Shown here one piece after another: positions 35,414 to 37,452 of a DNA stretch of 64,000 bases (its first letter is position 1; each line of letters starts with the position of its first letter). Below the pieces are notes generated by a model. That model saw only the letters and a list, made by a program, of their open reading frames with translations. It was not told the DNA's origin and searched no databases. Position numbers and translations under genes: made by a program. The stretch is from contig NW_027266270.1 of the NCBI RefSeq assembly GCF_022045235.1, positions 34,348,001 to 34,412,000 of the forward strand, written 5' to 3'. The DNA is from Haliotis cracherodii (taxonomy: Eukaryota).

Positions 35414-37452
35414 TATGATGGTTTGACACTTTCGTATGCAAACCGTCACAATATCTAGAATTAGCCTTGGGGAATTAGCTCGGGATCGGGCACCACCTTC
35501 AAAGAAACCAAACAAAGTGTCTATGGCCAGCTCCTTTATTGGGGATTTCTCGACAGTCATTTCACATTTAAAATAAGAAATATTTTTACATATAAAGTAC
35601 AAAGTCATATAGAACATTTACAGTTTCCATAAAAGAAGCAGTTATCACAATAGTGCGTGATATTAAACAATGATTATACATAAGAGTGTAAATGTCATGA
35701 TATACAAATGTATCATGGGCTTATTGATAAAATAACCAATTACAAATAACAATATTAAAGTCAGTCTACAAAGATACCTGTGAACAAAGCTTACATGATC
35801 TTATGTGATACTTATTTTCAGCCACTCCTAATTATGATTACGCCTTGCTAAATGGGACTGCCATAAGGTATGTCTTATTTACGTATAAACCTAGTTAAAC
35901 CCAATATCGGTATCGAATGTACGCAGATTTAAATATAAATAACAACATGCGTTGGCTGTACTTCTGAGCGAATATCATTCATTGTTTTATGCTGGTATAT
36001 GTTATACTTGAAGGCCATATCTATAATTCATCTAAACTACCGGAACAAACAAACTATATCTGATAGCATCCACATACACTGAGTTAACGGGCCCATTAAC
36101 AAATGTCCATTCACATTACTGAATGGTATAATATATGGATATATGTACATTTTAGGCATTGCTCGTAACGTAGACATGTTTGCTGAAGCTGTGTTACAAA
36201 TGTATTATGCTCAGACCTATGTAAATACAAGAGAGTTACCTATCTTATTTGTACATCGCTAACAGATTAGCTAAATGATTACATGGATATTATTACTGAT
36301 TTTAGCTCTGGCTTAGTTGTGCTATTAGCATAAATATGTGTGATGTGAATACATCATATATTAGCTACAGAAATTAACGTTTTCTGCCAGGCTAGATCCA
36401 TCAAATAACTCATATAAAAATTATTTAAAACAGTCTGGATTCTGTTTATGAACAAGTAATACATGCAATGTATGGTTCATCATAGAATCCTTACATTAAA
36501 AGATATGTACATACCTCGTGTGATATAAAAGGTCTGATCAAAGTGAAATAGTTCGTCTGCATTTACGCGACATTTTCACATATACAAAATAACTGAATCA
36601 CACTAAAATATCAATAAGCAGATAAAATACACAGCTTGCTACCACGACACCCGAATGTTAACATCTTATTTCCGACTCGGAACATGTTTGATATTCAATA
36701 TATGCCATACTGTGGAGTTAATACTTAAACGATAGTTTTGTCTAAACCTAACGCACGTATATTTGACAGATAAGTCCGTTAAATAGATACAACTCACTTA
36801 ATATATTTGCACTTATACACGGTCAATAACCTAAGATTAAACACCTTTACAGCTGGTAATATTGCTCCATATACGATACAAATTATAAAACAATTTAACT
36901 TATAACTTTAGAGAAATAGTAAGGTGAACATGACTTACCTTCAAAGAAACCAAACAAAGTGTCTATGGCCAGCTCCTTTATTGGGGATTTCTCGACAGTG
37001 AGGTACCCCCGGGGCTAGCCAGTATATATACTCTAGACACCTTGAATGGTCACGAATTTACTGCATGTTCAATTATCAGCTTGATAAGAAAATTTGAGTT
37101 CGTGCGTCGAGAATAGGGATTAAGGCTTGCCTAAGAAGTTTGACCAAGTGATGTCCACATAAGTTGAATAATAATTGATGAAGTAGTCCGAAAATATTGA
37201 TATGAGTTGGACGTATCAGCAAACGTGTGACAAGCGCTCATTGCGATAGAGGCTGAGACACGTACAGATAGATAATACTGACCATGCTCCAAGGATGTTA
37301 TGTAATTTTCTAGATAGCTGCGACCTTCACATGTGAGACTGATTGAAAACAGCACCTTACATTTAACTTAATATAACACAATAAAGACTATTACCACAGT
37401 TAACTATTACATAAATATTGAGGAAAACATGACCAATTTTACAACTATGACA
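35414..37452 (-). repeat. 3' LTR (2039 bp) with an internal 63-bp duplication
   Basis: Starts TG right after the PPT-like tract and runs to the TSD; 63-bp identical segment at 36937-36999 and 35495-35557. Confidence 0.82.

Follow-up and report, generated by a model that had tools for sequence, protein, structure and literature searches.

A duplicated R segment bounding an intron-like block in the LTRs of a Ty3/gypsy clade

Textbook LTR elements follow a U3-R-U5 plan and depend on unspliced genomic RNA, and a single round of reverse transcription would be expected to remove any intron. A window of 64,000 nt from the genome of Haliotis cracherodii (the window here means this whole stretch of DNA) contains an LTR that fits this plan poorly, as a short R segment occurs in it twice, and the two copies (R1 and R2) bound a long AT-rich block, X, that opens with a splice-donor sequence. 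The locus raises the question of whether an LTR can carry an intron, and how such an intron would be kept. The answer we consider probable is that, in a clade of Ty3/gypsy elements with LTRs of the form U3-R-X-R-U5, X and R2 constitute an intron that is cut out at the 5' end of the RNA, kept at the 3' end and rebuilt in each round.

The LTR of the window and the element it belongs to

The features of the locus are collected in Table 1. The window LTR lies at the 3' end of an element that has undergone an internal deletion. The two 63-nt copies (36999-36937 and 35557-35495) are 100% identical (blastn E 1.7e-26), although the exon common to both is strictly 61 nt, followed by a GT that opens both the donor and U5. 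GTGGTG follows the second copy, where the first copy has GTAAGT, and the putative intron (36938-35497) would be 1442 nt long. The spacing of TATA box and initiator, and the point at which R1/R2 identity begins, place the probable start site at 36999. An earlier note on this DNA, made from the letters alone, had given coordinates for the LTR, the TATA box, the start, the second R copy and the intron, and all of them hold on re-reading. The X of the window contains no AATAAA, and UGUA motifs lie close to its end. The LTR termini are TG...TA, not TG...CA, in families A (the window LTR) and I (L121), as designated below.

Table 1. Coordinates of the LTR and of the element remnant in the window
Feature	Position	Strand	Remarks
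3' LTR, U3-R1-X-R2-U5, termini TG...TA	35414..37452	-	2039 nt
U3	37000..37452	-	453 nt; adjoins the polypurine tract
TATA box TATATATA	37030-37023	-	31 nt upstream of the predicted start
Predicted U3:R1 hairpin, enclosing the R1 AATAAA region	36951..37049	-	From folding
R1, predicted first exon of 61 nt	36939..36999	-	AATAAA 36982-36977; pyrimidine tract and AAG at its end
Putative splice donor GTAAGT, directly after R1	36933..36938	-	Use inferred
X, AT-rich non-coding block	35558..36938	-	31% GC, 1.38 kb; body of the predicted intron
X/R2 junction, hypervariable bases	35558..35562	-	Predicted landing site of minus-strand transfer
R2, copy of R1	35497..35557	-	AATAAA 35540-35535; predicted acceptor AG 35498-35497; predicted poly(A) site at the 3' LTR and predicted acceptor at the 5' LTR
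U5	35414..35496	-	83 nt; PBS comes next in full-length copies
TSD ATAG	35410..35413	-	Partner 40987-40984
Truncated 5' LTR: U3, R1 (40530-40470), first ~370 nt of X	40095..40983	-	
Polypurine tract	37453..37460	-	
env ORF, F-type fusion protein	37622..40006	-	794 codons; Baculo_F PF12259 E 3e-18
env acceptor AG	40007-40006	-	Used in one contig of run X1

The 5' LTR of the window element differs from the 3' LTR by no substitution up to the point where it breaks off within X, and there a short microhomology marks its junction with the env acceptor region. The R2 of the 5' LTR, U5, PBS, gag and pol are absent from the locus, and since R2 and U5 of the 5' LTR are deleted the proposed 5' splice is impossible there. 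The internal deletion probably took place after insertion, because the 3' LTR still has its U5. In the deleted copy (truncated 5' LTR plus env), the R1 donor faces the env acceptor across about 460 nt; the env frame is open, with a Met at codon 7, and an env-only mRNA is possible. The top Atlas matches for the env protein are Baculo_F. The element lies within a broken LINE-like endonuclease/RT frame (window positions 33128-35418, + strand).

The window element's own family, designated A, gave at least 55 matches to the window LTR in the 1.18-Gb genome (40 of 82 candidates scored). At least 23 of these cover at least 95% of the LTR, at 91–100% identity, on 13 contigs and with differing flanks. 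Full-length copies with two complete LTRs were found on contigs C45 and C9; they are 12.6 kb long and consist of LTR, PBS, gag, a single stop, pol, env and LTR, and both of their LTRs hold both R copies. Pfam matches in a full-length copy give the pol order PR-RT-RH-IN-chromodomain, with the chromodomain (PF00385, E 9e-7, above the cut-off) following the integrase. LTR pairs, a TGGTGG PBS, a polypurine tract and 4-nt TSDs are all present, as in other Ty3/gypsy (Metaviridae) elements, and the F-type env after pol makes the family an errantivirus in the operational sense of PMC13524379.

Gag and pol share one frame with a single stop between them (L031:3756-3758), likewise in families G and E, and read-through of this stop is likely. 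A short upstream ORF (L031:2587-2610) begins in the PBS and terminates in an ATGA, where its stop codon runs into the gag frame's first ATG; the sister families have their first gag Met further along than L031. A contig of run X1 joins a late-gag donor (GT, L031:3627) to the env acceptor (AG, 8610) in frame, which predicts a Gag(1-340)-Env fusion frame. This GT..AG joint is not listed for run X19, and the acceptor used in X1 is likewise AAG/G. In L004/L049 and L011/L048 a partial LTR (U3-R1-52 nt of X, and U3-20 nt of R1, respectively) stands directly before a full LTR.

A clade of families with the same layout

Genome searches with env and integrase retrieved eight more Ty3/gypsy families with the layout U3-R-X-R-U5. 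Families B, C, D, E, F and J have env proteins that are 44–74% identical, and families G and I have no env. Across the nine families R is 43–82 nt, X is 0.58–1.46 kb and the R copies lie 0.6–1.8 kb apart, and none has the single R per LTR of a canonical U3-R-U5 design. Each family has its own R (42–77% global identity between families), and X shows no blastn likeness from one family to another. X does not appear to be a coding region, as its longest ATG frames reach just 25–72 codons.

In each family the repeat starts 28–32 nt past the start of the TATA box and ends at AAG, with GTAAG after the first copy only, and a pyrimidine tract plus AG closes R in every family. The sequence features of a spliceosomal intron, i.e. 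a GTRAG donor and a pyrimidine tract plus AG as acceptor, are thereby present. The acceptor is AAG and family A has no clear branch point, a caveat that had been raised from the window alone and stands. AG/GTRAG follows R1 in 76 of 82 LTRs and R2 in none of the 82, which extends to the families the earlier observation of a donor after the first R and none after the second. TATA box and initiator lie upstream of R1 in every family examined except for the damaged copy of E (the single E element seen, in which R1 lacks its first 17 nt and the TATA region is gone too), and no TATA was found at -30 of R2 in the families examined. In families J, C, D and I the identity of R1 and R2 starts 1–6 nt earlier, a shift that alternative start sites would produce.

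On an integrase tree of 18 rows (own-genome rows and four metagenome rows; family F and two distant copies, having no usable integrase, were left out) the eight families placed form one clade (95/100). The layout was sought beyond it: five more distant elements with LTR pairs of 0.8–0.9 kb have no internal repeat above 13 nt, and four distinct LTRs of these, when scanned, gave no AG/GTRAG. Both R copies occur in 10 of 20 env relatives examined. As for the others, L056 is without a 3' LTR, L062 has R1 only, L057 belongs to family J, and neither R copy was found in L063-L069 (env about 30%). No loci were found in viral contigs of other species, and metagenome contigs gave 12 distant loci, three of which were scanned and showed no internal repeat and no LTR pair. 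Two distant env-bearing elements carry an extra ORF of about 470 codons between env and the 3' LTR (L065:3962-5392 and L067:3735-5153), and a very high-copy gypsy family (L119/L120) has one gag-pol frame of 1765 codons and LTR ends TATCA...GATAA.

Plain U3-R-U5 LTRs are a minority and were found in families A, B and I. In family A there is a solo LTR of this kind (L037, one found), and in family G there was none among 41 matches. One family I element (L123/L124, G000:C7:290219-298730) has two plain LTRs of 583 nt and the TSD ATCT. Both of its LTRs have an altered base at -2 before R, as expected if the jump went to R1. One plain-LTR element is nested within family I on the integrase tree, and plain LTRs were not seen to form a family of their own; this would be explained by a plain LTR having no donor (A) or no poly(A) signal (B). 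The existence of plain LTRs indicates that the system leaks, and the family I element with both LTRs plain that X is not needed for every integration.

These results settle several points that the reading of a single locus had left as worries or expectations. Independent insertions, solo LTRs included, share U3-R-X-R-U5 (23 near-complete copies), and the R copies stay alike while X diverges. A one-off aberrant strand transfer is excluded by the nine families, and the concern over an assembly artefact is removed by copies with different flanks and by contigs of runs X1 and X2 that bridge R1-X-R2. Plain LTRs within a family had been named as evidence against the design; the R-X-R layout is widespread, but such a plain minority does exist.

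A proposed cycle, its footprints and its rivals

In the cycle we propose, transcription would begin at R1 of the 5' LTR, and the short cap-proximal R1 exon would be spliced to U5, with the copy of its own pyrimidine tract and AG that closes R2 as acceptor. This splice would discard the R2 poly(A) signal along with 1.4 kb holding dozens of upstream ATGs. At the 3' LTR, U3 is predicted to fold back on R1 and may hide it there from cleavage, splicing and strand transfer, while at the capped 5' end R1, as a short first exon, would be free. The RNA would continue through X and be polyadenylated in R2. Strong-stop DNA (R1-U5) would then anneal to R2, giving a new LTR of U3-R1-X-R2-U5 in which R2 has been overwritten by R1 from the start site to the donor; it is this last step that would leave footprints in genomic copies. 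The clade is real, its layout is conserved, and it carries independent genomic footprints of the proposed cycle.

The footprints were read from 82 LTRs of six families (A, B, C, D, G and I), one per element, after partner LTRs and same-flank duplicates had been removed by hand; copies within a family are related, and the counts are not of independent events. In 36 of 82 LTRs the five bases before R2 depart from the form most common in the family; before R1 this is so in 6 of 82. Within family A, the bases before R2 form 12 haplotypes in 27 copies, the highest value among 396 five-base windows (the next is 8), compared to 2 haplotypes in 25 copies for the five bases before R1. The last base before R2 is G in 23/25 copies of A and 13/14 of B, G or C in families G and I, and C in C and D (G in 0/11), and the base before R1 is C in 81 of 82 LTRs. 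In family I bases have been added stepwise at the X/R2 junction, and run X19 shows indels there. Since it is X/R2 and not U3/R1 that is marked, strong-stop DNA appears to end at the start of R and to anneal to R2. Kulpa et al. in 1997 reportedly described strand-transfer errors in MLV, with bases added or altered immediately 5' of R, at the U3/R border. The footprint seen here likewise resembles landing errors of strong-stop DNA, but lies at X/R2 and not at U3/R.

Variants are also shared between the two R copies of the same LTR, with R1 and R2 having a minority letter in common in 24 cells, compared to a mean of 6.7 (maximum 15) when the R2s were shuffled within families in 10,000 permutations. 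Only families B, D and G contribute clearly to this sharing (14, 59 and 0 of 10,000); in the window's own family A, and in C and I, it is within chance. Shared variants reach to 2–13 nt from the 3' end of R, a portion that an ordinary LTR would copy from the 5' end of its RNA. Discordant R1 and R2 were found in both LTRs of L137/138 and L147/148 and in one LTR of L100, a pattern to be expected from jumps between two RNAs. In family G, where joint inheritance of U5 and R2 was examined, U5 is too invariant to be informative. Landing at R2, together with the tracking of R1 by R2, leads us to infer that the 5' end of the template is R1 joined to U5.

The RNA's 3' end has left marks as well. Family B has no AATAAA in R and carries it only at the end of X, abutting R2, and therefore only R2 can be cleaved by means of that AATAAA. 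This signal, along with the X/R2 heterogeneity, is a footprint that the earlier note did not foresee. The sense strand of the nine X segments holds fewer AATAAA than expected (2 vs 8.7; as few in 3 of 500 shuffles), the antisense strand shows no such depletion, and UGUA is enriched (141 vs 114.5). The leader is 1607 nt with 46 ATGs if unspliced, and 165 nt with one ATG in the predicted spliced form. The public runs X1 and X2 come from one study and are presumed to be RNA. Their contigs, which are uninformative on transcript starts, ends and levels, cover U3-R1 and span R1-X-R2, and RNA with U3 can therefore retain X. None of the X1/X2 contigs listed joins R to U5; this is neutral evidence, as a spliced R1-U5 would have the same sequence as genomic R2-U5. 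A search for retroposed poly(A) copies that end in R gave 0 matches in families A and G, and retro-copies starting with R-U5-PBS and lacking X and U3 numbered 0 among the five R-bearing loci read, out of 40 matches (most of the others being known copies).

A means of telling two identical LTRs apart is suggested by folding. In each of the eight families folded, R1 is predicted to pair with the final 60 nt of U3 (z -2.6 to -7.7, 27–38 cross pairs), whereas neither X+R2 nor capped R1 gives a fold better than chance. The hairpin of the window LTR has a z of -4.6 (0 of 150 shuffles), and across the family A LTR it is the strongest window (z -6.5, the next being -2.8). Families C and D differ by 4 compensatory pairs of 34, and a second cross-family alignment (G, J, I and A) recovered only the inner 8 hairpin pairs. 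A local hairpin over the donor in family A is present in both contexts and is not significant. As U3 is found only in the RNA of the 3' LTR, the U3:R1 hairpin would mask R1 only there, and on these predictions it likely explains why identical LTRs behave differently. The earlier reading of a splice-controlled LTR is supported in its substance, but was incomplete in that it gave no reason for this difference.

Several other explanations have to be weighed against splicing. The reverse transcriptase itself might skip X: on unspliced RNA it would hop from R2 to R1 in the leader, run to the cap and jump to the 3' R2, and the donor would serve only poly(A) suppression or a separate mRNA. No acceptor would be required, the same junction footprint and much of the homogenization would follow, and the plain LTRs show that R-to-R skipping occurs. 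A hop would, however, let the end of the repeat drift, whereas identity stops at AG/GT in nine of nine families and variants are shared close to the 3' end of R; a pyrimidine tract and AG at that end in every family would also go unaccounted for, and we regard this route as unlikely. The absence of a TATA at -30 of R2, and the presence of TATA and initiator before R1 (except in the damaged E copy), bear against a different proposal, namely that a second promoter, at the end of X, starts the genomic RNA at R2. X and R1 would then be part of a long U3, with R1 an upstream duplicate kept alike by occasional conversion. Such a start would account for the X/R2 footprint and for polyadenylation at R2 without splicing, but nothing in it copies R2 into R1 in each cycle or places the boundary at the donor, which makes it quite unlikely.

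AATAAA is present in R1 in most families, and nothing new would be needed if this were an ordinary LTR with a very long U5, an unspliced leader, polyadenylation in R1 and a strong-stop DNA of 1.6 kb, R2 being the relic of an aberrant jump. This is very unlikely given that family B lacks an AATAAA both within R1 and ahead of it, that the error footprint is at R2, that R2 tracks R1 across families whose R segments are just 42–77% alike, and that contigs run through R1 into X. An assembly artefact or a single event at the window locus is refuted by the 23 near-complete copies on 13 contigs, the nine families and the bridging contigs in public runs. Removal of X and R2 by splicing remains our preferred reading.

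Relation to known systems and significance

The genes of these elements are not new. PMC13524379 describes chromodomain env Ty3/gypsy 'errantiviruses' of Cnidaria, Mollusca and Annelida with gag, pol, F-type env and LTRs, several mollusc members having LTRs of 1.0–1.85 kb. Compared by gene content and not by LTR sequence, these and the window family have the same gag, pol (PR-RT-RH-IN-chromodomain) and F-type env, whereas two families here (G and I) lack env. The main text of that paper maps LTR ends only, and the word 'splice' does not occur in it. The element found here is thus of a known kind, and it is the design of its LTR that is new.

The closest parallel for the LTR is that of foamy virus, in which, according to the sections of PMC3694450 drawn on here, the major donor lies within R, U1 binding suppresses the poly(A) site of the 5' LTR, and another RNA fold, at the 3' LTR, undoes the suppression. 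The use of a donor in R is common to both, and a U3-dependent fold is predicted here. However, foamy virus has a single R, no intron in the LTR and an unspliced genome, and its donor is upstream of the poly(A) signal, whereas here R is duplicated and the donor lies 38 nt downstream of the R1 AATAAA and ends the repeat. The foamy 3' fold turns poly(A) on in the same R, and the fold proposed here would turn R1 off and let the second R take over. HIV-1, with donor-dependent poly(A) occlusion, and RSV, MMTV and HTLV-1, with signals located in U3, face the same problem of identical LTRs (PMC12789967, PMC3694450); as far as these sources describe them, none has a duplicated R or a poly(A) signal spliced out within the LTR. 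Family B resembles the solution with a signal upstream of R (RSV, MMTV, HTLV-1), except that the signal is placed in X. A duplicated R is not among the three poly(A) strategies in the parts of the two reviews that deal with them. Penelope-like elements, in the portion of PMC8557442 that concerns them, have a 5'-UTR intron in or across the pseudo-LTR and likewise keep a leader intron through retrotransposition, but have no true LTR, PBS, strong-stop transfer or integrase. The window family is thus neither of the foamy-virus nor of the Penelope kind. In the openly accessible literature searched, no LTR with a duplicated R or an intron was found to be described.

On balance, we lean towards a broader view, in which an old Ty3/gypsy clade has solved the identical-LTR problem in a fourth way: it packages a spliced genome, the duplicate of R serves as acceptor, poly(A) site and landing pad, and the U3:R1 hairpin tells the LTRs apart. 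Other molluscs' long-LTR chromodomain elements would share this design, and fungal elements may have acquired it independently. The LTRs lend themselves to a simple screen in any repeat library, for an exact repeat of 40–90 nt within an LTR, starting about 30 nt after a TATA box and ending at AG/GT.

A whole clade thus departs from the U3-R-U5 plan, and its copies record where strand transfer landed. If the splice is confirmed, it would show how an LTR element can keep an intron, and would provide a new way to choose between the 5' and 3' poly(A) sites, with genome production placed under splicing control. Each solo LTR would then be a promoter, a first exon with a donor and a terminator, and may affect host genes.
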